The notes beneath the pieces were generated by a model. The model was given only the letters and a program-made list of their open reading frames with translations. It had not been told where the DNA came from and searched no databases. Both the position numbers and the translations under genes were made by a program. A stretch of DNA of 64,000 nucleotides from an uncultured Gammaproteobacteria bacterium (GTDB lineage: Bacteria > Patescibacteriota > Patescibacteriia > Magasanikbacterales > GWA2-37-8), in assembly GCA_964511375.1 (NCBI GenBank), contig CAZEEW010000003.1, forward strand, positions 10,987 to 74,986, read 5' to 3'. Each line of letters opens with the position of its first letter. Position 1 is the first letter of the stretch. This document shows, one piece after another, positions 10,047 through 63,682 of the stretch.

Positions 10047-12362
10047 TTATTTCCAATTTAATTTTAGTAAGCGGTTCTTGTCCAGAGTATAAAGGGTTCG
10101 GTTGGCTTCGTCGACAACTAGCCCGGTAGGGAAGGTAAATTGTTTGCTGGTTAATTGTTGTTTAACGCGTCCATCTTTTTCTAAAATTACAATTCTTTTT
10201 TTAGATGGTTCAATAAGATATAAATAGCTAAGGTCGTTATATGACCATATTTTTTGTGGGGCGTGTAGAGCAGGCTCTAGACCTTCAATAGCAAAATTTT
10301 GTTTCTGACCTTTAGTGAACTTTTGGACCTCCCCGGTAGATTGTAAGACAAAAATGTCGCCATCAATTGTCAAATCAATCGCCTGGCTAAAATTCGCCGC
10401 TCCACTTGTTAGCCAGTTTGTTCCTTTCGCAAATCCATTTTTGATACTGTCATGCTTGTAAATTAAACCACTAGTTTTGTCTACGGTATATAACCGTCGG
10501 TTATATACTACCAATCCTCCGAGCTCAGCTGAAGTTTCGCCAAAACTAATTTCAATTTTTTCTAAGGTGTTATTCCCTGGAGTAAAACGTACCAATTCTT
10601 TATTACTGCTAACAAATAAGGCATAATCATTTTCTTTGGGTGAACCACCTAAGCAGAAACCAGAAGAAACTGGGGCAGTAACCACTTCTCCAGTTTTAGT
10701 TAATTCGTCATAAACAAACAGTTTGGGGCTGGAAGAGTTAAAACTAATTATTTTACTGCCAATTTTAACAATTTGTTCAAGGGGTTGGTCAAGAGTTTGG
10801 TTTGACCAATTGTACATTTCTTCGGTGTTTGCTACTACTAATTTTCTTAACTTAAAACTTAAATTTTCTAATTCAGCGTCTAGTTCGCGGCAGGTTTCTG
10901 AATTTTTTTCTTCGTCACAAGCCAGTGTTAAGAAGATTTCTCTAGCCCCTTGTAGCTCTTTTAGGGCGCCAGTTTGGTCGTTATATATTAAGGCGCTTTC
11001 CGCTGAGTCTTTTTTGTTTCTAATCAGTGTTGTTTTTTCTTGGAATACAGCAGCCTCTGCTTCTCGAGAGCTCTTTTTTTCGGTGTAAACAATATTGCCA
11101 GCAAATATTAGGATGGCTGCTATAGCTAAGGTAAATAGTATTTTAGTCAAAAGCGGAAGGTCTTTAACACTACGAACATAGTGGTCGAATTGTCTTTTAT
11201 AATTTTCTCCCACTTCACGGCGACGTCCTTTAATATTGGTGGTAAGATAAAAGAGGTTAATTAACTGGTGGCTAATACCTAGTAAAATGGCCCAAGTAAA
11301 CATCGCCAACCACAATAAGACTTTGCCGATAATTTTCACGCCTTTTATAAAATAATTAAGATATTTGGTCCATTCCGGCAAGGTAGCGATTTTACTTCCT
11401 GGCAGATTGCGGTGGTTTGTCGGAACTAGGGGACGACGATGTGTAGATTGTATATCAGCTGCTGGAGTAGTTTCCGGTCGCAAACGTTCTTCGATTATTT
11501 CGACCGTTTTTTCTTCGGTGGTCTCTCCATCATTCCAGACATTTTTTAGTTTTTCGTTTAGACGCGGTAAGAGAGAAGAAGAGAGGGTCTCGGAGGTGTC
11601 TTTCTCTGTTCTAAACAAGTGGTTTAGTGATTTAGCACCCGATCCTTTGGTAATTGGGGATTTCTTAGGTACCGGTGTTTGTTTATCTTCAATAGTTGGA
11701 ACATAGTTAATGATCAAACCGCCGAAAGAATTACCGTTTTTAATCTCGGTTAGTACTTTTTGTAGATGTTCAGCGCTTAACCTCGGTGGTCGAGAAGTGA
11801 GTAATTTACTTAAACGGTCAGCATCAAAAGTCTCAGTAATGTGCGGGGTCCCGACAAATAAAAAGTCGTTAGGGCTGATCTTTCCCTGCACTACTTGAGA
11901 AAATAATTGGTTATCCGAGGGTTCGTCATTGCTCTCCGGGTTAATGAGTTCCATGACTTTAAATAGGCTATCTTTAGTTTTATAGAACAAATTCAAGGTT
12001 GGTTGGCCATAATAGCTGAAAACAATTTCGGGTTGTCTAATCACCCCAGCTAAACAGTGAATTTCAAGGTTCTCCGCTGTTAAGGCAAAGCCCGAATGGT
12101 TGACTTTTTCCAACACAACTTCAAAAGCCGATTTGCCTAATTCGTCTTCAGTAACATAATAATCATTTTCTATCTGATCAATTATCCCTTGTAATTGGAT
12201 TATCTGTTCTTTGGAGGCGCCATTCAGTTCACAGACAGCAAAAAAATAGCCCTTTTCCCGCTCTTCCGGAGTGGACGGCTCAGTAATGTGTAAGAGTACG
12301 TGTGAACGCTCGGATTCGCCTCCTTCAACAAAAAATTCGTGGATCTGTAATTTGTGCTCCAT
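10047..12362 (-). CDS. membrane protein with two central TM helices and C-terminal beta-propeller-like (NHL/YVTN-type) repeats
   Basis: ORF trimmed to ATG 12362, which has a -10-like tatact upstream. The longer 12629 start overlaps the divergent gene. Repeated strand motifs LYTVD, LYLIE and LYTLD. Confidence 0.5.
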   Translation of the reverse strand: MEHKLQIHEFFVEGGESERSHVLLHITEPSTPEEREKGYFFAVCELNGASKEQIIQLQGIIDQIENDYYVTEDELGKSAFEVVLEKVNHSGFALTAENLEIHCLAGVIRQPEIVFSYYGQPTLNLFYKTKDSLFKVMELINPESNDEPSDNQLFSQVVQGKISPNDFLFVGTPHITETFDADRLSKLLTSRPPRLSAEHLQKVLTEIKNGNSFGGLIINYVPTIEDKQTPVPKKSPITKGSGAKSLNHLFRTEKDTSETLSSSLLPRLNEKLKNVWNDGETTEEKTVEIIEERLRPETTPAADIQSTHRRPLVPTNHRNLPGSKIATLPEWTKYLNYFIKGVKIIGKVLLWLAMFTWAILLGISHQLINLFYLTTNIKGRRREVGENYKRQFDHYVRSVKDLPLLTKILFTLAIAAILIFAGNIVYTEKKSSREAEAAVFQEKTTLIRNKKDSAESALIYNDQTGALKELQGAREIFLTLACDEEKNSETCRELDAELENLSFKLRKLVVANTEEMYNWSNQTLDQPLEQIVKIGSKIISFNSSSPKLFVYDELTKTGEVVTAPVSSGFCLGGSPKENDYALFVSSNKELVRFTPGNNTLEKIEISFGETSAELGGLVVYNRRLYTVDKTSGLIYKHDSIKNGFAKGTNWLTSGAANFSQAIDLTIDGDIFVLQSTGEVQKFTKGQKQNFAIEGLEPALHAPQKIWSYNDLSYLYLIEPSKKRIVILEKDGRVKQQLTSKQFTFPTGLVVDEANRTLYTLDKNRLLKLNWK

Positions 12363-12468
12363 AGTTTTGACTTTTGTGACTCTTAATAGTATACTACAAA
12401 GGCCAAAAAAAGTCCAAACCTTTGCCAAATTAACAAGTAATTTGGTAAGGAAAAAAAGGATAATAAAT

Positions 12469-13065
12469 ATGCTTGAACACCTTTTTGGTTCGAAAACCAG
12501 ACTTAAGCTTTTGCAGCTATTTTTTCGCCATCCCGATCGGGCTTTTTTTGTTCGCGAAATTTGTCGAATGGTGGGTTCGCATTTAAATGCTGTTCGTCGC
12601 GAACTTTCTAACTTAGAACATCTTGGCATTATTGCTGTTACCGATAAACAGGAAGTGCCAGATTATGACCAAGGCAGTGAACGGGCTAAGTACTATATTC
12701 TCCAAAAGGACTTTTTATTGTTCGGTGAATTAAAGTCCCTTTTGCTTAAAGCGCAGGTCATGGAAGAACAAGCCTTTGTCTCTGATTTAAAGTCTAAGGG
12801 TGGGTTGATCAAACTTTTTGTTCTTACGGGGATATTCACTGACGAACCACAAACCAACACGGATATTTTGTTGGTAGGAAAGGTTAAACCAGTTAGTACC
12901 TCTAAAATTATCCGCGACTACGAGAAGTCCATTGATCGGCCGATCCGTTACACAATTATGACCGAAGAGGAGTATAACGAGCGTAAAGAAATTGGTGATA
13001 AATTTTTATATAGCATCCTCGAATCCAAGCACATCGTCATTTATGACGAAGTCAACGTAATGTAG
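12469..13065 (+). CDS. winged-helix DNA-binding protein (ArsR-like HTH N-terminus)
   Basis: Start trimmed to ATG 12469, preceded by aaaggat. HTH-like segment REICRMVGSHLNAVRRELSNLEHLGII. Confidence 0.4.
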   Translation: MLEHLFGSKTRLKLLQLFFRHPDRAFFVREICRMVGSHLNAVRRELSNLEHLGIIAVTDKQEVPDYDQGSERAKYYILQKDFLLFGELKSLLLKAQVMEEQAFVSDLKSKGGLIKLFVLTGIFTDEPQTNTDILLVGKVKPVSTSKIIRDYEKSIDRPIRYTIMTEEEYNERKEIGDKFLYSILESKHIVIYDEVNVM

Positions 13066-13456: not shown

Positions 13457-14956
13457 ATGCTTTCGGATTATCAGCGGTATCGAATTTATGAAACATTGCC
13501 TGGTTTAAGCATCTGGCTCACGCTTATTGTTGGTGTAGTTCTGTCTTTTGTAAAACCGCTTTGGATGATTTACGCCGTTTTAGTTTTTGATGTCTATTGG
13601 GTGCTGCGGGTAATTTATTTTTCTTTTTATTTAGTAATGTCTTGGCGCCGTTTTCGCAAATCTATTGCTATAAACTGGTGGAAAAGGCTAACAAAAGAAT
13701 TTCCGAATTGGCGGCAAAAGAAGTGTGTGGTATTTCTTCCGCTATATAACGAAGAATGGAGTATTGTTAAAGCAACTTTGGACGGGTTATCTAACGCGAA
13801 CTATCCTACGCAAGAAATATATGTTGTTTTGTCTGGTGAAGAAAGAAAGTTAGCTCACTGGCTAGAATTACAAAGTAGGATTAAGGAAAATTATTCTGGT
13901 ATATTTGCCGATCTAATATTTTATACTCATCCATCGGGATTGGCTGGGGAAATTCCTGGCAAAGGATCCAATATACATAACGCTGAATGGGAATTTAAAA
14001 AGTACGCTGACGAACGCAATTGGGATTATGGAGATATAGTTATCTCTGTTTTTGACATCGACACTGTTGTCCATAAAGAGTACTTTGCTCATTTAATGTA
14101 CATGTATTTAAGTCATCCTAATCCAACCCGAAGCTCTTTCCAGCCTGTTACTTTATACAATAATAATCTATGGGATTCACCGGCGCCGCTAAGAATTATG
14201 GCCTTCGGTACTAGTTTTTGGATGTTATTTAGCTTGGCGAGATTAGACAACATGGTAACTTTTTCATCACACAGTATGAGTTTTAAGGCCGTGATGGATT
14301 GTGGTGGTCACGCTAAAGATATTGTGAGTGAAGATTCGCGTATTTTTTATCAATGCTGGCTCCGATATAATGGTGAATATGAAGTCTCGCCCTTGTACAT
14401 TCCAGTATCCATGGATACTGTAAATGATGTTAGTGTTTGGAAAAGTCTAAAAAATTTATATTTACAACAACGTCGCTGGGCTTGGGGAGCTGAGAATTTG
14501 TCCTACTTACTATGGGAACTACGCCGCCGCCCAGAAATCCCTTGGACGAAAAAATTAAAAGCGATTTTTATAGAATGGGAAGGTAAGTGGAGTTGGGGAG
14601 TTGTTGCTATCATGATTACCGTACTTGGGCGTTTGCCGCTCTGGTTTGCTGGCGAAGAGCTACGCCAAAGTGCTTTATTTTTTAACACTCCGCATGTTCT
14701 CGAGATTCTTATGACTTTGGCTATGATTGGTTTATTTACTTCAGCCATCATGAGTATGTTGATTTTGCCAACTAGACCGCAGGGTTATTCTTCTCACCGC
14801 TATCTTTATATGATATTGCAGTGGTTGCTTTTGCCGATCTCGTTGGTATTTTTTTCCGCCATTCCTTGTATTGATGCTGTCACCCATTTAATGTTTGGTA
14901 ACTACTTGGGTTTCAATGTTTCAACTAAAAAACGTTTACAACCTAATTATTCATAA
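13457..14956 (+). CDS. family 2 glycosyltransferase, membrane-embedded processive type (cellulose/chitin-synthase-like)
   Basis: QQRRWAWG (QxxRW) motif and D-rich catalytic motifs. Multiple TM helices on both sides. Confidence 0.7.
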   Translation: MLSDYQRYRIYETLPGLSIWLTLIVGVVLSFVKPLWMIYAVLVFDVYWVLRVIYFSFYLVMSWRRFRKSIAINWWKRLTKEFPNWRQKKCVVFLPLYNEEWSIVKATLDGLSNANYPTQEIYVVLSGEERKLAHWLELQSRIKENYSGIFADLIFYTHPSGLAGEIPGKGSNIHNAEWEFKKYADERNWDYGDIVISVFDIDTVVHKEYFAHLMYMYLSHPNPTRSSFQPVTLYNNNLWDSPAPLRIMAFGTSFWMLFSLARLDNMVTFSSHSMSFKAVMDCGGHAKDIVSEDSRIFYQCWLRYNGEYEVSPLYIPVSMDTVNDVSVWKSLKNLYLQQRRWAWGAENLSYLLWELRRRPEIPWTKKLKAIFIEWEGKWSWGVVAIMITVLGRLPLWFAGEELRQSALFFNTPHVLEILMTLAMIGLFTSAIMSMLILPTRPQGYSSHRYLYMILQWLLLPISLVFFSAIPCIDAVTHLMFGNYLGFNVSTKKRLQPNYS

Positions 14957-37372: not shown

Positions 37373-37903
37373 ATGCTTTTCTTAAAAATTCTTGTATTTT
37401 TAAGTTTTTTATTAATGGGGATTGCCTTACCTCCCATTTCTTTTGCTCAAGTTATCGTAGAACCTCCTTTACAGCCCAATGAAGAACCAGTAACTACAAC
37501 TACCTTGCCGCCAGTGGAAGGGAATGATCCTGTGCCCCAAAGAGTTACCCCAGGGGAATCAACTTTACCTTCTACTACTACACCACCCTCTGTGGGCGGA
37601 TCAATTTTCGACAACCTGAGTTTGTTTGGTCGCTCGTTGGGTCTGCCGGAAACTGACCCTCGTTTTATTTTTACTAACCTCTTGCGACAAATCTTAGGCC
37701 TGCTCGGAATCATCCTCTTGGTTATCATTCTTTATGCTGGCTTCTTATGGATGCTTTCCGGTGATAATGATGACCAAAGAACTAAAGCCAAGCGAACGCT
37801 TATTGGTGCTGTTATTGGTCTAATAATAATTTTAAGTGCTAATAGCATTGTCTTGTTTATATTTCGCACTTTATCCGGTGCAACTACAACACCGCCAATA
37901 TAA
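37373..37903 (+). CDS. secreted Pro/Thr-rich protein with two C-terminal TM helices (VirB2/TrbC pilin-like topology)
   Basis: Signal peptide, then a P/T-rich linker, then two hydrophobic helices separated by DNDDQRTKAKR. The VirB2 call rests on topology only. Confidence 0.3.
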   Translation: MLFLKILVFLSFLLMGIALPPISFAQVIVEPPLQPNEEPVTTTTLPPVEGNDPVPQRVTPGESTLPSTTTPPSVGGSIFDNLSLFGRSLGLPETDPRFIFTNLLRQILGLLGIILLVIILYAGFLWMLSGDNDDQRTKAKRTLIGAVIGLIIILSANSIVLFIFRTLSGATTTPPI

Positions 37904-41831: not shown

Positions 41832-43922
41832 ATGCAGAAAAACAAATACGCTAAGCCAGCTGCAAAGGGGATTACCCGTTCGCAGCTACGTTGGAGGACT
41901 CTCGGAGTGCTTTTTTTGTTAGTAGTTTCGCTTTTAGTTGTCATGCCTACGTATGCCAATCGCGGTATTAATTGGGTGAACAATAAGACCAATTTAGGTA
42001 TTCCAACTTTACCAGACAAGGGTTTTAACCTGGGTTTGGATTTACAAGGTGGTGCTCACTTGGTTTACAAAGCGGATACCACTCAAGTCCAGGGCGGAGA
42101 TGTCGATTCAGCAGTCGAGGGTGTACGAGATGTTATTGAACGACGTGTCCGTGGTGGTTTGGGTGTTTCTGAGCCATTAGTACAAACCAACGAAGTTGGT
42201 GATGAACAGCGTATAATTATTGAATTACCAGGTATTACTGATGTCAAACAAGCAATCGCGATGATCGGCGAAACACCAGTATTAGAATTCAAAGAGGTAA
42301 ATGATACTCCTGCTCGGGATCTGACTAAAGAAGAAAAGAAACAAATGGACGATTTTAACAAAGCTGCTGAGAAAAAAGCACGTGAAGCTTTAGTAGCTGC
42401 CAGAAAAGGTACAGATTTTGCTGAGCTAGTTAATAAATATAGTGATGACCCAGCGGAGGTTAAACAAAAAGGTGGTAATGTTGGTTTTGTGACCTCAGAT
42501 ATTTCTCCAGAATTGTACAAATGGGCAACTGGTAAAAAAATAAATGAAGTCAGTCGTGATTTAGTTAAGGATAATGACGGACTAAATATTTTGAAAAAGA
42601 TTTCCGAGCGTGATGGTGAGAAAAAAGTTACTGCTTCACACTTGCTCTTGTGTTATAACGGTGCAACTGGCTGTACTGATCCAAAGTACACCAAAGAAGA
42701 AGCAAAAGCAAAGATCGAGGAAATAAAAAAGCAAGCCACCATTCAGAATTTTCGTGATCTAGTCAAACAATATACCACTGAACCAGGTGGAGCCGATCGT
42801 AATGGCGAACTGGGCACTTTCAGTAAAGGCCAAATGGTTCCTGCTTTTGAGGATGTGGCCTTTAGTATGCCAAATAATTCTATCTCTGATCCGGTTGAGA
42901 CCGAATTCGGTTATCACTTGATTTACAAATATGGTGAAGAAATTCCCAAGGAATATGAGTTGGCACGCGTATTTGTAAATACTAAAACCGCGACAGACAT
43001 ACTGCCCCCAGCTGATCAATGGAAGAAAACTGGTCTTTCCGGTAAACAGTTAAAGCGTGCTGAGGTGGTTGAAGACCAGCAGACTAGCCAGATTCAAGTT
43101 AGTTTAAACTTCAATGATGAAGGTACTAAACTATTCGGTGAAATTACTGAACGAAATATTGGCAAACAAGTCGCTATTTTCTTAGACGGCGAACCTTTGA
43201 GCACTCCAGTAGTTAATGAAGCCATTACTAGTGGCAGCGCAGTTATTTCTGGTGGGTTTACTTTTCAGGAAGCAAAATTATTGGCTCAACGGCTAAACTC
43301 TGGTGCTTTGCCGGTGCCAGTAGAATTAATTAGCCAACAAAGTGTTGACGCTTCTTTGGGCAGCGACTCTTTGCAAAAGAGTTTTAAGGCCGGTATCGCT
43401 GGTTTGATTGCTGTTATGCTGTTCATGATTTTGTATTACCGTTTACCCGGTATTATTTCTGTTGCAACTTTAGTCATATATGCTGCTCTAACCTTGGCCT
43501 TATCCAAAATTTTGGGGGTTACGTTAACACTTTCCGGTATTGCTGGTTTCATTCTTTCTATCGGTATGGCTGTAGATGCTAACGTTTTGGTGTTTGAACG
43601 CCTAAAAGAGGAACTGCGCACGGGTAAATCCTTAAAAGTCGCAGGAGAAGAAGCTTTTGTACGCGCTTGGTCTTCTATTCGTGATGGAAATATTACCACG
43701 TTAATTTCCTGTGTTTTACTGGTATGGTTTGGTTCCGGATTTATCCAAGGCTTTGCGGTTACTCTTGGTCTTGGTATCTTGGTGAGTATGTTAACGGCCT
43801 TTGTCTTTAGTAGGACAATTATACGCTTAGTTTTTTCTTGGTTACCAGAGAGAGGAAACTGGTTTTTTCTAGGTCACCAGTCTAAAACTCTTGAGAGTGT
43901 AGAATCTACTGTAAATAAATAA
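41832..43922 (+). CDS. secD: SecD with inserted tandem parvulin-type PPIase (PpiC/SurA-like) domains
   Basis: SecD N-terminal TM, P1 region and C-terminal six-TM core. The central inserts carry FAELVNKYSDD...GGNVGFV and ASHLLL...GELGTFSKGQMVPAFEDVAF...GYHLIY, which are parvulin signatures. Confidence 0.7.
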   Translation: MQKNKYAKPAAKGITRSQLRWRTLGVLFLLVVSLLVVMPTYANRGINWVNNKTNLGIPTLPDKGFNLGLDLQGGAHLVYKADTTQVQGGDVDSAVEGVRDVIERRVRGGLGVSEPLVQTNEVGDEQRIIIELPGITDVKQAIAMIGETPVLEFKEVNDTPARDLTKEEKKQMDDFNKAAEKKAREALVAARKGTDFAELVNKYSDDPAEVKQKGGNVGFVTSDISPELYKWATGKKINEVSRDLVKDNDGLNILKKISERDGEKKVTASHLLLCYNGATGCTDPKYTKEEAKAKIEEIKKQATIQNFRDLVKQYTTEPGGADRNGELGTFSKGQMVPAFEDVAFSMPNNSISDPVETEFGYHLIYKYGEEIPKEYELARVFVNTKTATDILPPADQWKKTGLSGKQLKRAEVVEDQQTSQIQVSLNFNDEGTKLFGEITERNIGKQVAIFLDGEPLSTPVVNEAITSGSAVISGGFTFQEAKLLAQRLNSGALPVPVELISQQSVDASLGSDSLQKSFKAGIAGLIAVMLFMILYYRLPGIISVATLVIYAALTLALSKILGVTLTLSGIAGFILSIGMAVDANVLVFERLKEELRTGKSLKVAGEEAFVRAWSSIRDGNITTLISCVLLVWFGSGFIQGFAVTLGLGILVSMLTAFVFSRTIIRLVFSWLPERGNWFFLGHQSKTLESVESTVNK

Positions 43923-47145: not shown

Positions 47146-47664
47146 TTAAGCCAATATTTCTTGTGCTGTCCGTTTGTTTTGCCAGTATTTTATCGCCTCA
47201 TATCCACCGACCAAGAGAGTTACATATGTGAGGTCGCCAAGGAGGGTATTACGGAAGAAGGGAATAGCAGCGACATAGCTCGTCGCTAACCCAGAGAGGT
47301 TGTGGGTGTACATAGTACCAAAGGCCCAAACTGCGAAGTTGGTTAGTACAAAGAAAAGCAAACTATTAAAAATTGTGCTGCCAAAAATATTTCGGAAGTT
47401 TTTTTGTTTTTTTACTACTTGCCCTACTAGAAAAGCAATGGCAAAGCACCCGTATACCGTCGCCATAATCGGCCAAGAATAAAAACCAATAACTAAATCA
47501 CTTAAAAACATGGCGGCTAAGGGGATGAAGAACATTTTACGTGGTAGATATAATCCACCGAATAAGGCGATCGCGGCAATCGGTGCAAAGTTTGGTGCGT
47601 GCGGCAATAACCTTGCCAAGGCTCCAAGAGCAATTAAGAGATAAATTGGTAAGTATTTTTTCAT
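47146..47664 (-). CDS. polytopic membrane protein (ECF-S-component/DUF-like, 5-6 TM)
   Basis: Trimmed to ATG 47664 (MKKYLPIYLL). Hydrophobic throughout. Confidence 0.45.
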   Translation of the reverse strand: MKKYLPIYLLIALGALARLLPHAPNFAPIAAIALFGGLYLPRKMFFIPLAAMFLSDLVIGFYSWPIMATVYGCFAIAFLVGQVVKKQKNFRNIFGSTIFNSLLFFVLTNFAVWAFGTMYTHNLSGLATSYVAAIPFFRNTLLGDLTYVTLLVGGYEAIKYWQNKRTAQEILA

Positions 47665-47717
47665 ATTATCCGAATTATTTAGATGGTTAATTATATCACC
47701 ATTAGAGCAGTTTGTCA

Positions 47718-49499
47718 TTATTTAGACTTATCTCTAAATTTAATTGTTATATAAAGGCCGAGGATAATCAAGGTGGCAATCGATGCGAAGAAAATACGTT
47801 TGATCCAAATATGATAAACCCTATTTTCTTCTTCGGGCTTCGAACTAGTTGTGTTGTTTATTTCTTCCACTGTCTGTTGAGTATCTGTCGCAATCTTTTC
47901 CCCGAGAATATTTTTAGTATCAACGGTTTCTTTTGTCGGTTGTTTATTAATATTCCTTGATTGGGGGATATATTTAATTGGCTGCGAAATAACAGGTGGT
48001 GTTGTAGTAGTCTCCCTTGATTCAGTTGAAGTAGACGTATCCATTTCCACTGTGGTAGTCGGTGTACTAGTAACCATATCCAAAGTAGTGGTCGGTGTAG
48101 AAGTTGGAATAATTATTTCAACCGTAGAAGTAGGAGTGGTGGTGGTTGTTTCAATCACAGGATTATATAGAAAATTACCGCCTCCAACGTTTGGTACTGG
48201 TACTGTTTCAGTAAGCGAACTATCTGTTAAAATTATTGGCCAGCTTTTCCCCAGTAAGGCTGGCACAGCGTGTTTAGTGCCGAACCAGTCGATACCATCA
48301 GCTGAAAAAGAACTAGTATAGTAGCCATCGCTATTCGTCCCTTCGACCAATGACCCAGTCATAACATGCCAAGGATTTTTGCCGACGCTGTTAAACCAAT
48401 CGTTTTGGTTTTCACCCAAAGCATTGATACCCATCATGGCCCACGAGGTAGTAAGAGCATCAGAGGAGCCAAAACCCCATCCACCATCGTTTAATTGGGT
48501 ATTTTTAAGGTAATTCTTAGCATTGGTATAGATATTGGCTTCCACAGCCTTCCCGTGGTTCTCCGCGTATTTTAGAGCGTTTATAGCTGCTCCAGTAATG
48601 TCAGCACCGCTCCAGCCGTCCCAGGTAAAGGATCCATCTGCCTGTTGGTCAGCTATTACTGTCCTTATAATAACGTCCACTGAGTCAGAGTTAGTTTCGC
48701 CTCCTGTCACCAAGCTAAAGAGGCCAAAAATATCATCATTAATACCACGGAGACCGAATTGTTCATCTTTAACGCAGCGAGTCTTAATTTCGTTATTGAG
48801 GTCAGTAATACTTTTTTGGTTTGGGTTGAATCCACCCGCCATTAAACCCAGAGCATGGCGTGGATAGCTTGCGCAATAGTTTAATTCGCTAGAGCCAGAC
48901 AAGTCGTAGCTCTTTAAATAGTCTAAGAGCGAGTCATTTCCTTTTTTTACATTTTTGGAATAAATATTATTGGCTCCCAATGACATAGCTACCCATTCCG
49001 AAGTCGGGCCATCAATAATCATGCCGTCGTCACTCTGTTGGTTTTTGAAGAAGTTCAAAATCTTATTAACTGCACTTTGAATTAAATTTTGATCTACGGG
49101 CGAAGGGGAGGTGGTAGTATTAATGCCTCCACTACCTGAAGTGTTGCTGTCTGTTGAGGTGGGGGTAGTAGTTGCTATTTCAATGGCTGTAGTTGCGTCC
49201 ACAACCTCGGTAGTGGTGGTAGCGGTGGTGGTTGTTGTTGTCGTAACTACATCCAAGGTAGAAGTAGGAAGTGTAGATGTATTTTCTGCTGTGCTACTCA
49301 CAGTATCTGTTGTGGAGCTAGTGACAGTTATCTCGGCTGTTTGCGGTGTAGAAGAAGGAAATGAGTCGTCGTTGAGTAAGTTTTCTTCAGTTGGGGGAGG
49401 TGAGACAGTTTCGTCAGCCAGAACTTGGTGAGTTAATACAAAACTTAATACCAATATAGTCGCTATTCCTCCCAAAAACTTCTTACTTGCTCGTTTCAT
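47718..49499 (-). CDS. secreted Thr-rich surface protein with alpha/alpha-toroid (prenyltransferase/terpene-cyclase-like) central domain and C-terminal TM anchor
   Basis: Signal peptide. Poly-Thr linkers. W/G/D-rich repeats of the kind seen in terpenoid cyclase/PFTB-repeat folds. C-terminal TM IATLIILGLYITI. Confidence 0.4.
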   Translation of the reverse strand: MKRASKKFLGGIATILVLSFVLTHQVLADETVSPPPTEENLLNDDSFPSSTPQTAEITVTSSTTDTVSSTAENTSTLPTSTLDVVTTTTTTTATTTTEVVDATTAIEIATTTPTSTDSNTSGSGGINTTTSPSPVDQNLIQSAVNKILNFFKNQQSDDGMIIDGPTSEWVAMSLGANNIYSKNVKKGNDSLLDYLKSYDLSGSSELNYCASYPRHALGLMAGGFNPNQKSITDLNNEIKTRCVKDEQFGLRGINDDIFGLFSLVTGGETNSDSVDVIIRTVIADQQADGSFTWDGWSGADITGAAINALKYAENHGKAVEANIYTNAKNYLKNTQLNDGGWGFGSSDALTTSWAMMGINALGENQNDWFNSVGKNPWHVMTGSLVEGTNSDGYYTSSFSADGIDWFGTKHAVPALLGKSWPIILTDSSLTETVPVPNVGGGNFLYNPVIETTTTTPTSTVEIIIPTSTPTTTLDMVTSTPTTTVEMDTSTSTESRETTTTPPVISQPIKYIPQSRNINKQPTKETVDTKNILGEKIATDTQQTVEEINNTTSSKPEEENRVYHIWIKRIFFASIATLIILGLYITIKFRDKSK

Positions 49500-50064
49500 A
49501 TTTCCAGGTAATAGAATCGTTATTTTTTAAAATATAGTTAGAGATACCTACTTGGGATGCTTCGCCGTTTACATAAAAGAACCAGTATTTGCCAGTTAAA
49601 CGATCGCTTTTTACTCCATTGATGCTATCCACAAACTTTCCTAGGCTGCCAAATTCTTTTGTTACCCATGCCAACTTACCTTGGGCTTCAAGTTCTGCCA
49701 TGGCAGTGTACAAACTGGTATTTTCGTCATGTGAAATCGCATGGGGCGTACCATTAATTTCAATCGTTATTTTAACTGGTTTGGCCTTCTCACTGATTTC
49801 CGGAATTGTTACGCGCGGTTCGTTGTTTTTGGTATTACTATTGTTCTCGGGAGGTGTCTGGTTTTTTAGAATTTCTCGACGTTCTATCGCTGGAGCAGGT
49901 GGCGGAACAACATCTTCGGTAGTAGTGCTAACAGGTTCCTTATTTTTGTTTTCGCTGTATTTATCTCCAAACTGGGAGAAAAGTAAATACGCACCACTAA
50001 AACCGGCGATGAAAATTAAGACAGCGATTAAACGAACTAGGGCAGGGGATAAAGGTTTAGACAT
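49483..50064 (-). CDS. membrane-anchored protein with C-terminal DUF4430-like domain
   Basis: N-terminal TM, then a Pro-rich linker. The C-terminal block is ITIEINGT...GKYWFFYVNG. Confidence 0.4.
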   Translation of the reverse strand: MSKPLSPALVRLIAVLIFIAGFSGAYLLFSQFGDKYSENKNKEPVSTTTEDVVPPPAPAIERREILKNQTPPENNSNTKNNEPRVTIPEISEKAKPVKITIEINGTPHAISHDENTSLYTAMAELEAQGKLAWVTKEFGSLGKFVDSINGVKSDRLTGKYWFFYVNGEASQVGISNYILKNNDSITWKYETSK

Positions 50065-50288
50065 AATAAAAAATCTCTGTCCAAGCAGAGAAAAAAGATC
50101 TAAAAACAGAGTTCCTGCTCGGGATTTAAAGATATTTGAAGACCGGACTTGTCCCGAATTTGCTCGGGCCTTACCGTTGCGGCACAGTGGAGGAATTACA
50201 CCTCACTTCCACAAATATCTTTTTAAATTGTTAGTATAGAGAGATTAACATTTAGGAAACGGACTGTCAAACAGGAGTTATCAACAGG

Positions 50289-57949: not shown

Positions 57950-58888
57950 CTAGCTTCGAATGTCTTCTCCTTTGGGTAAGGCATTAAGCCAATCACGCTC
58001 AACTTCTTTTACACTCGACCAGCTCCAGCCGTGTTGTTTTACGAACTTAGGATGAGAAATGTAATGGGATTTTCCGTCTTTGACGAGGAAAAGCCCGTTT
58101 GTGCCTTTTACTTTAACCAATTGTTCTTTGGTTTTAGTGAAAAGTGCGCGTGGCGGGTCGGTAACTCGGCGTGTTTGGTGGTTGAAATCACCCAAAGATT
58201 TTCGGATTATATCATAACTATACCGGTAGTCAAGGCCGGTATCGTGGTCGCCAGTGTCGTTAACAATGAACTCTTCTTTGTCGTCATCATAGCCAACAAT
58301 CACAAACATATGGTAATAAGTACCACCGACCCGGAAGTTAATATTAGGATTATTTAAGTAATATCCATATATTGGCAAAATTACCGGCCGACCGGCTCTT
58401 AATTCTTCTTTAATTTGTTCAAAAGTTGGTTCATCTACAACTCGTGAGCTAAAAGACATGTAATCGTTAATTAGCCGGTTGGTGCGTGCTGCACTAGTGT
58501 CGGCGTTGCTGCCGTAGATCTTATTTTCGATGTCAAAAAGACGTTGCATCTCTTTTGCAGCCTTGGCCTTAGTTAGATCTTTACTTCCTAAATAATATTC
58601 ATTAACCATCACAACCGAGGCTTCCTCACAGGCATTTTTCCATGGCCCAACCCAAGCACCGTTGGGAATCTCCGAGGTAAACGGTACGTCCAGGTTAACA
58701 TATTTGGCTGGTGTCTGTGTCTCGGCGTCGTTTTTGTTTTTCTCCAGCAAGACCACCTCAGACTCCTTAACCGTGCTGGTAGAGGAACTTTGTGTCATTT
58801 CTTTTGTTTCGGTATTTTTTTGCTTGGCCCAAACAACGAGTACAGGTAGTAGGACAAGGATCAAGACAAAGATAAATATTTTTTTCAT
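57950..58888 (-). CDS. secreted papain-like cysteine peptidase, C39-like (Peptidase_C39_2-type)
   Basis: Signal peptide. Cys motif WKNACEEASVVMV and His motif YHMFVIVGYDD. Trimmed to ATG 58888. Confidence 0.5.
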   Translation of the reverse strand: MKKIFIFVLILVLLPVLVVWAKQKNTETKEMTQSSSTSTVKESEVVLLEKNKNDAETQTPAKYVNLDVPFTSEIPNGAWVGPWKNACEEASVVMVNEYYLGSKDLTKAKAAKEMQRLFDIENKIYGSNADTSAARTNRLINDYMSFSSRVVDEPTFEQIKEELRAGRPVILPIYGYYLNNPNINFRVGGTYYHMFVIVGYDDDKEEFIVNDTGDHDTGLDYRYSYDIIRKSLGDFNHQTRRVTDPPRALFTKTKEQLVKVKGTNGLFLVKDGKSHYISHPKFVKQHGWSWSSVKEVERDWLNALPKGEDIRS

Positions 58889-58936
58889 ATGCTTTAATTT
58901 AAAAGGATAGATTGCTCTATCCCTTTCCACCTGGCT

Positions 58937-60562
58937 TTACTTTACTACTTCGCCACCAAAGTCAGCTGCCAGGTTATGTATATCTTCTGGTTTAGTTTCG
59001 GATTGAGATTGCTCTTCTCGGAGCTCACAAACCAGAATGACATTTTCATTTAAAATTTGGGATAAAGCCTCTTCAACAATTTTTTTATTTTTCTTCTCTT
59101 CTATTTTTTCTTTATGGAAAGAATAGGGGAAAGAGATGTGCAAACCATACTCTGAGGTTTTTTCCAAAGTCGACATTTTTAGTACGAAGGTTAGGGAGTG
59201 ATTAGTTTCGGAGATTTTATCAATCGCTTTTGGCCACACACCTCGTATTTGTTCAATACCGCTTTGGAGAGGATGTTTGTGCGTAATGGAAGAAATAGCA
59301 GTTTTTAAAGTATTTTTTAAACCGCTTTTTTCCTTATTTTCCTCGGCTAACTCGGTTATAGGAATGGCTGACAAGTCATCTTTCGTTGAATTAAACTTTG
59401 TTGCAGGTATTGTAGCATCTTCGTTTGATCCGCCAAGCGGAGGGGGTTGTGGCGGCTCAGGCTTATTATTTATTTTTTCCAAATTAAAATCAATAGCAAG
59501 AATTTCCAAAGGCAGCGAAGGAATTGGTGAAGACTTGATCTGTTGTCGGGCTTCAATCATAGCGTTAGTAAGGCGGCTGTAAAATTCGCTAGATTTGGCC
59601 TGTGATAAAGCGGTTAATTCCTTTAGGGTTTCATTGCTGTAGGTGGCTCGGTCAACAAGTTTGACATCTACTTGTAACAACAATAAATGACGTAAGACCT
59701 CCAGACAGTCTAATGCCAATTGTTCAAAGTTAGCTCCGTTATCGTTTAGGGATTGTAAGGTTTGTAAAGATTTGTTTGGTTTGCTTTCAATGATACCGGA
59801 TAAATACTTAATGACAGCATCAATATTTGATGGCGGCAGTATGGCACTGGCGTTTTCGGCGGTAATTTTTTTCTCGTTAATGGAAAATACTTGGCCGAGT
59901 AAACTCTCGGCGTCCCTTAAACAGCCCTCGCTTTTGCCGACGATCCTTTCTAATACTTCTTTTGCTATTTTAATATCTTCCGCCTTGGCAATTTCTTCTA
60001 GCCGTTTAAACATTTCTTCGTAGCCAACTTTTTTAAAGTTAAATCTTTGGCAACGAGATAAAATTGTCGCCGGAAGTTTGTGCATCTCGGTTGTGGCGAG
60101 AATAAATACAACGTGCGCTGGAGGCTCTTCGATCGTTTTAAGTAGTGCGTTAAAAGCGCTGGTAGATAGCATGTGCACCTCGTCAATAATAAAGACCTTA
60201 AAAGGGGAGCGAGTTGGTTTAAATTGAGCGTTTTCAATAATATTCTCGCGGACATTATCTACACCAGTGTGCGAGGCGGCATCAATTTCAATTACATCAA
60301 TACTACGCCCAGCGCTAGTTTCTATACAGCTTTGGCATTTATCACACGGTTCAAATTCTCCAGGCTTCCGATTTTCGCAATTAACCGCTTTAGCTAAAAG
60401 ACGGGCGATCGTAGTTTTACCGACGCCGCGTGGACCAGAAAATAAATAAGCATGCGCGACTTTTTTAGTCGCGATTTGGTTTTGGATGGTGGTAGTAATA
60501 GCCTCCTGACCGGTCACTTCCGCGAAGGTCTGCGGCCGGTATTTTCGGTAAAGAGTTGTCAT
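58937..60562 (-). CDS. dnaX: DNA polymerase III subunit gamma/tau
   Basis: GPRGVGKTT Walker A, the DEVHML region and SRC-type zinc module residues. Confidence 0.9.
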   Translation of the reverse strand: MTTLYRKYRPQTFAEVTGQEAITTTIQNQIATKKVAHAYLFSGPRGVGKTTIARLLAKAVNCENRKPGEFEPCDKCQSCIETSAGRSIDVIEIDAASHTGVDNVRENIIENAQFKPTRSPFKVFIIDEVHMLSTSAFNALLKTIEEPPAHVVFILATTEMHKLPATILSRCQRFNFKKVGYEEMFKRLEEIAKAEDIKIAKEVLERIVGKSEGCLRDAESLLGQVFSINEKKITAENASAILPPSNIDAVIKYLSGIIESKPNKSLQTLQSLNDNGANFEQLALDCLEVLRHLLLLQVDVKLVDRATYSNETLKELTALSQAKSSEFYSRLTNAMIEARQQIKSSPIPSLPLEILAIDFNLEKINNKPEPPQPPPLGGSNEDATIPATKFNSTKDDLSAIPITELAEENKEKSGLKNTLKTAISSITHKHPLQSGIEQIRGVWPKAIDKISETNHSLTFVLKMSTLEKTSEYGLHISFPYSFHKEKIEEKKNKKIVEEALSQILNENVILVCELREEQSQSETKPEDIHNLAADFGGEVVK

Positions 60563-60574
60563 AGTCTAATCATT

Positions 60575-63133
60575 TTACATTGAGGCTTCGGTTAAATCAA
60601 GAGTCTCAGTTTTCGAGTCGCCAAGCTTGGCTCGTTCCATAATTTCTGCTTCCACAATCTCACGTGGACGACCATATTTTAAACGAGAGAGTTCTTTAAT
60701 GGCGGCGGCTAATTCTTTATTGCCGGGCTTTGGCGGGTAGGTCATCATGTTAAAAGGTTTAGCTGCCGTATTGTCGATTAGAAGTTTAGTATAAGCGGTA
60801 TATTGCTCAACGTTCATAAGGTCGTAAGCTGAGAAAACTGGAGCATATTCTTTGGCCAGTATTTCAGCATCTTCGACACCAATGCGGAAAGTAACTAAAG
60901 TACCAGCGTTACCAAGCACAGCATCGCGTACGGTATTCTTGCCTTTATTGTCTACTAACTGATTCAAATACTGATGAGCGATAATTAACTCTAAACGGTA
61001 TTTACGAGCTTCAGACAAAATGGTTGCAATCGAGTCAGTAATGAAGTTCTGGAACTCGTCAATGTACAAGAAAAAGTCATGACGCTGGTCTTCGGGTAGA
61101 GAAGCGCGTTCAAGAGCAGTCATTTGCAATTTGGATACGATAATCAAACCTAAAAGGTTAGAGTTAATCTCACCAACCAAACCTTTGGCCAGGTTTACTA
61201 GGAGAATTTTTTTCTTATCCATTATTTCCCGGAAGTTGAAGCCAGAGCGAGACTGACCAATGATATTTCTAATCATTTGGTTTTCCACAAAACGTCCCAC
61301 TTTGGAAATTAAATAACCTAACATTTCGGATTTATGGAAATCAGAAGTTTTGGCCATTTCTTTGTTCCAGAAGGCTAAGACCATTGGATCGTTTAACTTT
61401 GCTTTCCATTCTTCAACATATTCTTCATCCGTAAACATGCGAGGAATTTCCGCAATAGTACCAGGGTTTTCCATGTCGGCCATGAGTGTCAACATGACGT
61501 TTCTCATTTGATGCTCAAACATTGGACCAATCATGGAAGGGTCAGTAACTAATTTGTAGAATATGGAAACCATTTCCTGACAAACAAAGTCTTTTTGTTC
61601 CTCGGTTTTCGCTTCTAACATGTTTAAACCAATCGGTCGTTCAATGTCCGCAGGACTGAAGTAAATTACGTCATCCGCACGCTCTTTGGGCACGTGTTGT
61701 AAAACATATTCTACAAAATCTCCATGTGGATCAATAACACAAACACCTTCACCGTTAATAACATCCTGGACAGCTAGATTTTGGATAAAAACAGATTTAC
61801 CACTACCAGATTTACCGATGGTATATAAGTGACGTCGACGGTCGGCTCGCTTCATGCGGACGATAGACTCTTCACCGCGATAAACCGATCTACCAAGTAT
61901 GATACCTTCTTTCGGCATATTAATCGGTGGGGGAGCCTTGCGTGCACCCAGCCAGTTAATATGTGGAGTTTCCGTGGTGGGGATTGGCATGTGCCAGAAA
62001 CTCGACATTTCTTCTGTATTTGCGACCATTTCGTATTTTTCATGGAAGGATCGATAAATTGAATCCTGTATAATCTTTTTTTGGTTGCGTGGGAGTGCGG
62101 CACCAAAAGAATTACCGTAACGGTAAATATTATATTGACTGAACGAATTGATCATGTTTTCGAGGTTCAGCTGAGCTTTCTCTTTGGATGGTCCAGAACT
62201 AATCAAACGAATGGTCATTTCTAAACCACCATGACTAATTTTTTCTTCCATTCCTTTAACCATCTCTTCTTCCATTTGAGTTAGGTGGTATTGTTGTGAT
62301 ACTGAATCTTGACGGGTCGGGTCAGCCTTTTTGGGGAATACTACCTTTTTCCATTTTAAAAGGCTCCGCATGAATGAACTACGTTTAGCCACGTATTCAA
62401 ATTTTTGTCCTTCTTTTATATCTCTGATCATTTGTACGCCCTGACGTCGCCACTTTGGACCAGCTGGGCGAACAACGTATTGGATTAATGCCCCCTCACT
62501 ATCTAAGATCTTACTTAAGGGGTTGAGCAGCGCGACGAGCGGATCCGTGTCCATCTTTTTATAACTCTTAAATGGAAAGGCGGAGCGGAATTTAAACCAT
62601 AAATAAGCCCCAACAATGTGGCACTCTGGTTGAAAGATGTTATAATCCGGTTCTTCGCTTATCTCAGCATGGGGGTATTGGGCGTGGATTTGTTGCTCCA
62701 GGAAATCGCGGTATTTGTCTGGTACGGCGAGGTAAAAAGAAATCTTACTATCCTTTACAACAATCTCAAAAGAGAAATTATCTCTTCGTCCAGTAAACCA
62801 TTTCACCAGGCCCTTTTCGCGTTTTAAACCAGAAATCGAAGAAAAAATTGTATCCGCAATCGCAATGCGTTCGCGGATTTGGTTAATATTTTCCTCTTGG
62901 TTGGAGTTTTGTTGTCCTTCGTTTTTTCTTTCTTTTGGAACACGTATTAAAAGAATTGTTTTATGAAATGCCTTACCCTCCTTACCCAAAAGATGAAAGA
63001 AGGAACGGAGAATATAGAGGAGGGAAATGAAGGCAAAGAAACCGATTATCCCCATTAATAGATAAAACAACTCCGGTGTTTGGAGGATATAGTCGACCGC
63101 ACTCTTTAGATAAAAGAGATATTCGTTTTCCAT
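60575..63133 (-). CDS. VirB4/TraC/HerA-like P-loop ATPase (DUF87-type) with N-terminal TM segment
   Basis: Walker A GKSGSGKS and Walker B FFLYIDEFQNF. 852 aa. The N-terminal TM plus domain is paralogous to 45126-46541. Confidence 0.55.
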   Translation of the reverse strand: MENEYLFYLKSAVDYILQTPELFYLLMGIIGFFAFISLLYILRSFFHLLGKEGKAFHKTILLIRVPKERKNEGQQNSNQEENINQIRERIAIADTIFSSISGLKREKGLVKWFTGRRDNFSFEIVVKDSKISFYLAVPDKYRDFLEQQIHAQYPHAEISEEPDYNIFQPECHIVGAYLWFKFRSAFPFKSYKKMDTDPLVALLNPLSKILDSEGALIQYVVRPAGPKWRRQGVQMIRDIKEGQKFEYVAKRSSFMRSLLKWKKVVFPKKADPTRQDSVSQQYHLTQMEEEMVKGMEEKISHGGLEMTIRLISSGPSKEKAQLNLENMINSFSQYNIYRYGNSFGAALPRNQKKIIQDSIYRSFHEKYEMVANTEEMSSFWHMPIPTTETPHINWLGARKAPPPINMPKEGIILGRSVYRGEESIVRMKRADRRRHLYTIGKSGSGKSVFIQNLAVQDVINGEGVCVIDPHGDFVEYVLQHVPKERADDVIYFSPADIERPIGLNMLEAKTEEQKDFVCQEMVSIFYKLVTDPSMIGPMFEHQMRNVMLTLMADMENPGTIAEIPRMFTDEEYVEEWKAKLNDPMVLAFWNKEMAKTSDFHKSEMLGYLISKVGRFVENQMIRNIIGQSRSGFNFREIMDKKKILLVNLAKGLVGEINSNLLGLIIVSKLQMTALERASLPEDQRHDFFLYIDEFQNFITDSIATILSEARKYRLELIIAHQYLNQLVDNKGKNTVRDAVLGNAGTLVTFRIGVEDAEILAKEYAPVFSAYDLMNVEQYTAYTKLLIDNTAAKPFNMMTYPPKPGNKELAAAIKELSRLKYGRPREIVEAEIMERAKLGDSKTETLDLTEASM

Positions 63134-63634
63134 TTAAAGTTTAATAATACCTTCCTCAGTTTTTTTGAGATTTAATATGCGATCCGTTTTAATCTTTGCT
63201 TCTTGTTCTAAGAAAAAACGATTAACCCCAGGTAAGAGTTTGAGCCATTGCAAAATCAAGGCAAAAACCTTTTTCGCTTTCACTTTTGTCCCCTTCATTA
63301 AGGCTCGTATCTTCTTAGCTGTTTCTTCCCCCTTAATTTTAAATTCTTGTTTGGCAACTGGAGACAAACGTGAAAAAGCATCGCCCAATCCTTCTTCCAT
63401 TATCTTTTCAATTTTAACAGTTACCTCATCCCGAACTTGAGGAATAGTAGTGGGTTTTCGACGTAAAGTCGGGCCAAATTTTGACACCTCAGGGGTACGA
63501 TTGGCAGTTTCAGTTTTTTGGCCTTCCGGTTTATTCGGAGCTGCTTCACGAGGGGCAACTTTTTCAACCTGAGATTCTGGTGCCCGGGGTAATTCAGCAG
63601 AGATTTTCTTTTCGGTAATATTATTAGTTGACAT
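63134..63634 (-). CDS. hypothetical basic/Pro-rich protein immediately upstream of the ATPase (stop abuts ATPase start)
   Basis: 166 aa. P/E/K-rich N-terminus and a helical C-terminus. Confidence 0.4.
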   Translation of the reverse strand: MSTNNITEKKISAELPRAPESQVEKVAPREAAPNKPEGQKTETANRTPEVSKFGPTLRRKPTTIPQVRDEVTVKIEKIMEEGLGDAFSRLSPVAKQEFKIKGEETAKKIRALMKGTKVKAKKVFALILQWLKLLPGVNRFFLEQEAKIKTDRILNLKKTEEGIIKL

Positions 63635-63682
63635 AACAACTAAATTATATCACAAGAGAGTGATATTAACAATTTTTATTAC

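Follow-up and report, generated by a model that had tools for sequence, protein, structure and literature searches.

Type IV coupling proteins (T4CPs) such as TrwB of plasmid R388, VirD4, TraD, DotL and Cag-beta share a nucleotide-binding domain with an all-helical insertion and a membrane anchor, and those of the TrwB/VirD4/TraD type have two transmembrane helices and are encoded with a relaxase and a type IV secretion system (T4SS). Detachment of the T4CP from the T4SS in Patescibacteria was already published in 2025: that article reports 5,713 VirD4-type homologues in 2,918 of 3,035 genomes, with only 148 of these homologues near virB4, describes relaxases as rare and suggests exaptation of the homologues (Quinonero-Coronel et al. 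2025, PMC12102498). Neither coupling nor relaxase proteins can be recognised in the essential T4SS cluster of S. epibionticum (Wang et al. 2023). Here we analyse a 64,000-nucleotide stretch of a genome assigned to the Patescibacteriota order Magasanikbacterales (contig CAZEEW010000003.1; the whole stretch is called the window below), in which the gene for an 852-amino-acid (aa) ATPase directly follows the gene for p166, a basic protein of 166 aa (Table 1). We read the two genes as a cassette of a membrane-anchored motor of the T4CP branch and its dedicated partner p166, most likely serving a dispersed Patescibacteria T4SS, and give this reading a probability of roughly 0.7.

The T4CPs of the 2025 survey represent the same phenomenon, being near-universal and away from virB4, with no relaxase. 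Neither the DUF8128 domain that marks the ATPase studied here, nor the VirB4-like fold of this domain, nor a conserved small upstream partner is described in the searched passages of that article. The classification itself is unchanged, as databases already annotate the family as T4SS DNA-binding or coupling protein. What is added here is that the DUF8128 fold is predicted to be VirB4-like, that relatives on Gram-positive plasmids hold, by gene order, the position of a coupling protein, and that the genes for the motor and for a small partner specific to the lineage together make up a cassette. The locus is still of interest for its uncharacterised DUF8128 subtype, the predicted VirB4-like fold of its N-terminal domain and its conserved partner gene. 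It is also a clean example of a separately encoded T4CP in a phylum whose T4SS is essential for epibiotic growth and has a cluster without a recognisable coupling protein.

A coupling-protein-type ATPase with a single membrane helix

A sequence-only reading of the window had described a P-loop ATPase of the T4SS superfamily that is anchored by an N-terminal transmembrane segment, and this description stands. The open reading frames (ORFs), the Walker A and DE-type Walker B motifs, an AQYPxAEI motif, the basic neighbour rich in proline, glutamate and lysine, and dnaX all lie where that reading had placed them. Both genes are real and the ATPase gene is highly conserved; a protein identical to the ATPase is recorded in NCBI and Logan.

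Three Pfam families of T4CPs exceed their cutoffs in the ATPase: PF02534 (T4SS-DNA_transf; 7e-11, 42.1 bits versus 20.1), PF10412 (TrwB_AAD_bind; 2e-9, 37.3 bits versus 20.5, spanning aa 429–767) and PF12696 (TraG-D_C; 3.8e-6, 27.3 bits versus 22). DUF87 lies just over its cutoff (6.5e-6). The best sequence match in the PDB is TrwB, both for the single sequence in phmmer (1e-6) and for the family profile (2.6e-8), followed by DotL, and the VirB4 entry 4ag5 appears at an E-value of 0.93. Across 52 diverse relatives, TrwB_AAD_bind is matched by 51, TraG-D_C by 50 and the third T4CP family by 29, with weak matches to the VirB4-type AAA_10 in 10 and to FtsK in 10. Scored with a C-terminal-domain profile, TrwB reaches 39.6 bits, compared with 0.1 for TrwK (the VirB4 of R388) and 2.0 for PrgJ, and hhalign gives this domain 97.5% against TrwB alone.

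The models of related ATPase families are matched far below their cutoffs. The VirB4 models TIGR00929 (19.2 bits versus 643) and TraC (19.4 versus 567) align as short fragments only, and a Pfam scan of the ATPase gives no match to PF03135 or AAA_10. The HerA model NF040819, whose cutoff is 970 bits, scores 12, and FtsK_SpoIIIE (PF01580) reaches 14.4 bits against 24, over the P-loop region at aa 419–453 only. HerA with a NurA neighbour and FtsK/SpoIIIE had been named in advance as the identities that would overturn a T4SS assignment; neither is borne out, and a NurA neighbour is absent. By sequence, the ATPase is of the coupling-protein type (VirD4/TrwB/TraD), not of the VirB4, HerA or FtsK type, and its profile matches assign it to the T4CP branch of the FtsK-HerA superfamily.

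The motifs and membrane topology of the ATPase are conserved across its relatives. D692, E693, E708, K711, Q721 and Q725 are invariant in the alignment of 52 relatives. The Walker A context (RRHLYTIGKSGSGKS against RHLLVNGATGTGKS) is held in common with canonical T4CPs, as are the Walker B and Q motifs. The AQYPHAEI element at aa 151–158 is an instance of a family signature, QIxAxYPxAxI. A hydrophobic peak at aa 24–42 (Kyte-Doolittle 2.36) coincides with a long helix at aa 20–55 in the AlphaFold2 model, and one transmembrane-like segment occurs in 51 of the 52 relatives and two in none.

Table 1. Coordinates in the window of the cassette, its domains and motifs, and associated features
Feature	Coordinates	Strand	Basis and remarks
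p166 gene, 166-aa basic protein	63134..63634	-	ORF call
852-aa ATPase gene	60575..63133	-	ORF call; DUF8128-type type IV coupling-protein-like ATPase
Single N-terminal transmembrane helix, aa ~24–46	62996..63064	-	Kyte-Doolittle, AlphaFold2, conservation
DUF8128 (PF26449), aa 56–410, holds AQYPHAEI	61904..62968	-	Precomputed Pfam hits, model, Foldseek
T4CP-type nucleotide-binding domain, aa 411–835	60629..61903	-	Pfam, phmmer, Foldseek, hhalign
Walker A GKSGSGKS, aa 440–447	61793..61816	-	Motif; G440 and K446 invariant in 52 relatives
All-helical insertion between Walker A and B, aa ~511–640	61214..61603	-	Model secondary structure
Walker B FLYIDE, aa 688–693	61055..61072	-	Motif; followed by conserved SEARKY and AHQYxxQL
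dnaX (DNA polymerase III tau/gamma)	58937..60562	-	PF13177 2.9e-45; neighbour, not functional part
Promoter-like site TTGTTA-17 nt-TG-TATAAT	63644..63672	-	Consensus scan and sequence reading
VirB2/TrbC-like T4SS pilin gene	37373..37903	+	PF18895 T4SS_pilin 6.4e-12, 45.8 bits versus 26.6; PF04956 30.5 bits

A conserved small partner upstream of the motor

p166 contains 15% lysine, 11% glutamate and 6.6% proline and has an isoelectric point of 9.96. Its first ~60 aa are variable and rich in proline, glutamate, lysine and threonine, and its last ~105 aa are strongly conserved, with the signature ...WLKxLPGVNRFFLEQEAKIKTD... and 27 invariant columns in 23 sequences. Searches of Pfam, NCBIfam, PADLOC and the PDB yield no relative of the protein, which had been taken for an orphan. 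It is instead a conserved syntenic partner: p166 has at least 1,475 homologues, and a profile search of the 34 closest (ABY1-like) loci locates its gene in 28, ahead of the ATPase gene and in the same orientation, with gaps that mostly range from -4 to +18 nt. Among the six loci without p166, L007, L015 and L020 are cut at or near the upstream contig end, and in L022, L024 and L030 the upstream sequence is present and p166 is absent.

The likeliest role of p166 is that of an adaptor to the motor or of its regulator. TrwA of R388 and PcfB of pCF10 are of similar size and are likewise encoded directly upstream of a coupling-protein gene: trwA lies ahead of trwB, and the end of pcfB (161 aa) overlaps pcfC at its start. 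The comparison is positional only, with no detectable homology between p166 and PcfB: as a candidate member of the PcfB/DUF3801 family, p166 was rejected at an hhalign probability of 0.15%.

In other classes (loci L035–L081), different genes of 120–190 aa stand upstream of the ATPase gene, for example at positions 5276–5686 of L036, 5533–5970 of L051 and 5528–5968 of L067. Class-specific types occur in Paceibacteria (KGVxHAVxVAxxMxDxYxLDxxHD), Microgenomatia and Saccharimonadia, each with a disordered N-terminal half rich in proline, glutamate, alanine and glutamine and a short conserved helical C-terminal part. Homology among the ABY1-like, Paceibacteria, Microgenomatia and Saccharimonadia proteins was rejected, with hhalign below 1% for every pair; the four types resemble one another only in where they are encoded, in size and in the disorder of their N-terminal halves. 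The Paceibacteria type was likewise rejected as PcfB/DUF3801 (hhalign 0.6%), and a DUF3801 match at an E-value of 0.017 in 1 of 14 members was judged to be chance.

Some ATPases of the family carry long additions of their own. P0267, P0273, P0277 and P0262 have disordered C-terminal tails of 450–1,200 aa, rich in proline and alanine, that repeat motifs of the types PPPIGAPPV[DE]L and L[NS]ITDITGGK and resemble in composition the N-terminal halves of the small upstream partners. We abandoned fused domains as a guide to function: the C-terminal extensions of 200–1,200 aa are disorder rich in proline and alanine with no Pfam domain, and the N-terminal tetratricopeptide repeats of one long variant are uninformative in this respect.

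Relatives in conjugation modules and on phages

Relatives of the ATPase on Gram-positive plasmids and haloarchaeal megaplasmids have, as in the window protein, DUF8128 together with a T4CP ATPase throughout, scoring 63–115 bits with the N-domain profile and 168–303 bits with the C-domain profile. The genes of the plasmid relatives lie within conjugation modules, with ATPase, replication-relaxation and conjugal transfer genes, whereas the window gene is chromosomal and has p166 instead. A 27.6-kb plasmid of B. licheniformis encodes an 885-aa homologue (DUF8128 114.6 bits, motor 186.9 bits), downstream of which lie a replication-relaxation gene, conjugal transfer genes and a gene annotated as an 847-aa ATP-binding protein. 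An Embleya plasmid carries, in order, PrgI, a VirB4-like ATPase (AAA_10/TraC), an 812-aa homologue that aligns over aa 119–821 (8e-68), a replication-relaxation gene and NlpC/P60.

Homologues are also carried by the Bacillus phages G, D6E and Nachito. The phage family phrog_5156 matches the window ATPase over its full length (7e-86), and gp156 of phage G is 24% identical over aa 94–801; these are phage-borne, whereas the window gene is chromosomal. gp156 adjoins the VirB4-like gp155. Embleya and phage G thus each encode the DUF8128 protein in addition to a neighbouring VirB4-like ATPase, and gene order on the Bacillus plasmid is the same, so by gene content the DUF8128-type relatives on Gram-positive plasmids hold the coupling-protein position.

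Several features of these relatives are of separate note. The succession of a DUF8128-type gene and a gene of the 'replication-relaxation family' is seen in Embleya (L087, 5741–9259) and B. licheniformis (L102, 1–3560), and this pair is absent from the Patescibacteria locus. The full architecture on haloarchaeal megaplasmids includes, on pHAR01 of Halorubrum salinarum (L084, 7689–14912), a 2,407-aa protein with DUF8128 at aa 72–366 and a T4CP-like motor at aa 691–1058. ORF23 of D6E, a temperate thermophilic phage, is a full-length member in the lysogeny/accessory region, between partition-protein and integrase genes (L082, 5785–8043). A full-text literature search for 'DUF8128' yields no paper, and the plasmid and haloarchaeal relatives appear to lack experimental study.

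A probable motor for a dispersed T4SS, or possibly a stand-alone translocase

Two observations speak for a link of the motor to a T4SS: its plasmid relatives reside in T4SS modules, and the window contains a VirB2/TrbC-like pilin gene. The product of the latter has a signal peptide, a linker rich in proline and threonine and two hydrophobic helices. The gene lies ~23 kb from the ATPase gene, between the gene for a protein with four transmembrane segments and secA, with no T4SS gene adjoining, and is the sole T4SS-related gene beyond the ATPase among the scanned ORFs, which cover most of the window. The sequence-only reading had found no T4SS cluster nearby and proposed a minimal or dispersed system; the scan agrees on the first point, and the isolated pilin gene fits a dispersed system in the source genome.

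By analogy with TrwB and VirD4, the motor of the proposed cassette would assemble at the cytoplasmic membrane into a hexameric ring, anchored by its transmembrane helix with the N-terminus outside and the motor in the cytoplasm, where ATP hydrolysis would recruit a DNA or protein substrate and push it toward a membrane channel. The DUF8128 domain may dock the motor to membrane partners, as the N-terminal domain of VirB4 suggests, and p166 would act as adaptor or regulator in ABY1-like lineages. The Patescibacteria gene would have left its T4SS cluster and is now chromosomal, with no relaxase beside it.

Several results weigh against this reading. First, the best NCBIfam matches of the ATPase, TraD and the VirD4-like CD1115 family, fall well below their equivalog cutoffs (46.9 bits versus 366 and 39.8 versus 250), so that by these models the protein is T4CP-like yet outside every named equivalog family. 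Second, the C-terminal domain reaches an hhalign probability of 98.2% against a four-sequence VirB4 alignment and 5.5% against PcfC alone; the profile–profile scores are therefore mixed, and would place the family in a continuum of VirB4 and VirD4, on the coupling-protein side. Third, canonical coupling proteins have two transmembrane helices and no DUF8128, unlike the window ATPase. Fourth, no VirB4, VirB6, PrgI or relaxase was found among the scanned ORFs, those with several transmembrane segments being EamA, ABC-2, SecD/F, DUF6580 and similar proteins rather than VirB6-like ones. Finally, the 2025 survey records VirB4 in 2,417 of the 3,035 genomes (80%) versus T4CPs in 2,918 (96%), and reports that a coupling-protein homologue of S. 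epibionticum is non-essential while the T4SS genes are essential (PMC12102498), which argues against an obligatory partnership with the T4SS.

The same wider spread, the homologue reported as non-essential in S. epibionticum and the absence of an adjacent relaxase are why a stand-alone role has to be considered. Here the motor would be a nucleic-acid translocase working without a T4SS, a coupling protein taken over for a different membrane task, for instance the import of DNA or RNA from the host or the environment, or chromosome handling of the FtsK/SpoIIIE kind. Such a translocase would agree with the small share of homologues near virB4 and with the exaptation raised by the survey's authors, and with very high conservation (72–80% identity in Magasanikbacteria, ~40% across the phylum) combined with linkage to housekeeping genes. 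Nothing for ComEC, FtsK or uptake is linked at the locus, however; the window has its pilin gene, relatives elsewhere are embedded in T4SS clusters, and the published counts take in all T4CP homologues and not the DUF8128 type alone. Nor do we know of an earlier case in which a motor of the VirD4 type imports its substrate. We regard a stand-alone translocase of this description as rather unlikely. Overall, service in a dispersed Patescibacteria T4SS is the most likely role of the motor, and a T4SS-independent role is quite possible.

Patescibacteria are unable to make nucleotides, lipids and most amino acids and depend on material from host cells. The uptake of host RNA and DNA, and the entry of macromolecules across the Patescibacteria membrane in general, are stated in the literature to be unresolved, and the T4CP homologues in ~96% of genomes have no assigned role. 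A more far-reaching and doubtful proposal takes the motor and its class-specific partner as one module, inherited vertically throughout the phylum, that has given up conjugation and is the engine, at the cytoplasmic membrane, of the host-dependent lifestyle. If so, the module would move host-derived nucleic acid or effectors, through a pilus-bearing T4SS or alone, without a relaxase, and the DUF8128-type motor would preserve the ancestral two-domain state of the VirB4/VirD4 lineage, a VirB4-like N-terminal domain joined to a motor.

The DUF8128 domain is predicted to resemble TrwK/VirB4 in fold

The AlphaFold2 model of the ATPase, built from a 52-sequence alignment, has a mean predicted local distance difference test score (pLDDT) of 89.6 and a predicted template modelling score (pTM) of 0.81, and consists of a helix (aa 20–55), an alpha/beta domain (aa 56–410) and a P-loop domain (aa 411–835). 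In the predicted structure, a helical insertion sits where the all-alpha domain of TrwB-type proteins lies. In a Foldseek search of the PDB, the motor half aligns with TrwB at a template modelling score (TM-score) of 0.66 and a root-mean-square deviation (rmsd) of ~5 Å, with Cag-beta and HerA next. The best E-values of the full model are to TrwK (2e-13, ~920 aligned columns), and aa 56–410 were therefore modelled separately.

This region corresponds to PF26449, an assignment taken from precomputed Pfam hits rather than a local scan, and found in those hits for the identical protein and for all 120 top homologues. Modelled alone (pLDDT 90.1, pTM 0.88), it has TrwK/VirB4 chains as its top 14 PDB matches, with E-values of 7.6e-6 to 3e-3, probabilities of 0.99–1.0 and query TM-scores (TMq) of 0.40–0.48; the next matches are unrelated, at E-values of 0.012 or above. 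Profile comparison finds no sequence similarity between the domain and VirB4 N-domains (hhalign 0–0.2%). The DUF8128 domain is thus predicted to fold like TrwK/VirB4 with no accompanying sequence signal.

The sequence-only reading had gone further and suggested a VirB4-type assembly ATPase resembling a VirB3-VirB4 fusion. At the level of predicted fold, the VirB4 likeness is sustained for the N-terminal domain only, together with the length and two-domain layout of the protein, the TrwK matches of the full model and the small gene directly upstream, at the place of virB3. At the level of sequence it fails, as T4CP models pass and VirB4 models give fragments, with the ATPase profile near 0 bits on TrwK; the TM-score of the full model to TrwK is just 0.29, at an rmsd of 16 Å, and relatives coexist with a separate VirB4-like protein. 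The fusion finds no backing either: p166 has no clear transmembrane segment and no VirB3 or PrgI match, and the survey counts zero VirB3-VirB4 fusions in 3,035 Patescibacteria genomes (PMC12102498). An assembly ATPase of the VirB4 type is thus largely refuted, and we consider it very improbable.

Conservation across the Patescibacteria

Clustering at 90% identity leaves over 5,500 groups of ATPase homologues, and at 50% identity there are 5,766 clusters with E-values of 1e-30 or lower. The top 120, with identities of 72–100%, belong to Patescibacteria, Magasanikbacteria among them. In species-representative genomes there are at least 600 loci, spanning all major Patescibacteria classes; those listed include Magasanik-, Uhr-, Falkow-, Komeili-, Buchanan-, Staskawicz-, Levy-, Woese-, Davies-, Curtiss-, Peregrini-, Berkel- and Saccharibacteria. 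Among the matches listed, and with taxonomy taken from record titles, identity appears to drop as taxonomic distance grows, the pattern expected under vertical inheritance. The ATPase gene appears, from these comparisons, to be chromosomal, phylum-wide and vertically inherited in Patescibacteria.

A Patescibacteria-type locus was also seen in metagenome-assembled genomes titled 'uncultured Gammaproteobacteria', 'Bdellovibrionales', 'Methylomirabilota' or 'Limisphaerales' (L004, L005, L016, L020, L078 and others). L004, L005 and L016 show the synteny of p166, dnaX and cysS despite these titles, which probably reflect mislabelled or contaminated bins.

This conservation also bears on whether the protein is a HerA-type repair ATPase or a defence ATPase such as the mad8-like protein of MADS. 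The ATPase does match PADLOC mad8 over aa 431–760 (8.5e-16) as well as DUF87, and the HerA structure 4d2i is among the Foldseek matches (3e-10). The locus has no NurA, other mad genes or defence neighbours and is flanked by cysS, dnaX and a C39-like peptidase gene, so we take the mad8 match to reflect the common P-loop core. With the HerA profile far below cutoff, p166 unmatched in PADLOC and a seemingly vertical, phylum-wide conservation unlike that of defence islands, a repair or defence function has very little to recommend it. The full-length phrog_5156 match and the phage and plasmid homologues might suggest that an integrated conjugative element or a prophage left the locus behind as a remnant; we set this aside almost entirely, as no integrase, relaxase or phage gene lies nearby and the synteny of p166, dnaX and cysS is kept across many genomes; guanine-plus-cytosine content is even across the window and IMG/VR contains only 12 loci with relatives, 11 of which match the ATPase domain alone, and therefore the gene is not on a mobile element here.

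Layout and transcription of the locus

The TAA stop codon of p166 abuts the ATG of the ATPase gene with no gap, and dnaX begins 12 nt downstream of the ATPase stop. Upstream of p166 is a promoter-like site with 10 of 12 consensus matches and a TG extension, a consensus match alone and no proof of function. Its -10 element (TG-TATAAT) ends ~10 nt ahead of the p166 ATG, so the mRNA may be leaderless or nearly so, and the site is a possible start of a transcript of p166, the T4CP gene and dnaX that has almost no leader. With this site before p166 and no terminator-like site in the scanned intervals from p166 to dnaX, co-transcription of the three genes is plausible.

Of the 34 closest loci, 22 have dnaX 0–4 kb downstream of the ATPase gene, an arrangement not seen in other classes; the link therefore looks like lineage synteny. 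The flanks of the cassette in the window hold cysS, dnaX, a gene for a C39-like peptidase, tRNA-Gln and glycosyltransferase genes. The peptidase is of the papain type with an N-terminal transmembrane or signal segment, is encoded directly downstream of dnaX (57950–58930, minus strand) and keeps this place in 4 loci among the closest 34, one of them being the contig that is identical to the window.

Other features of the window

Four long ORFs have no significant Pfam family: 92–2281 (plus strand, 729 aa), 5738–8827 (plus, 1029 aa), 10047–12629 (minus, 860 aa) and 13457–14956 (plus, 499 aa). A SecD-like protein encoded at 41832–43922 (plus strand) has PpiC-type peptidyl-prolyl isomerase (Rotamase) domains at aa 253–365, inserted between its SecD N-terminal and P1-head domains, an unusual fusion.

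An adenosylcobalamin (AdoCbl) riboswitch (RF01482, 64.7 bits; 50078–50234, minus strand) lies upstream of three genes, the whole region extending over 47146–50234 on the minus strand. The genes encode a DUF4430 protein (49483–50064), a 593-aa protein without a Pfam family (47718–49499) and a DUF6580 membrane protein (47146–47718) that resembles the S-component of an energy-coupling factor (ECF) transporter. The riboswitch and the three genes may constitute a B12 uptake operon in a Patescibacterium.

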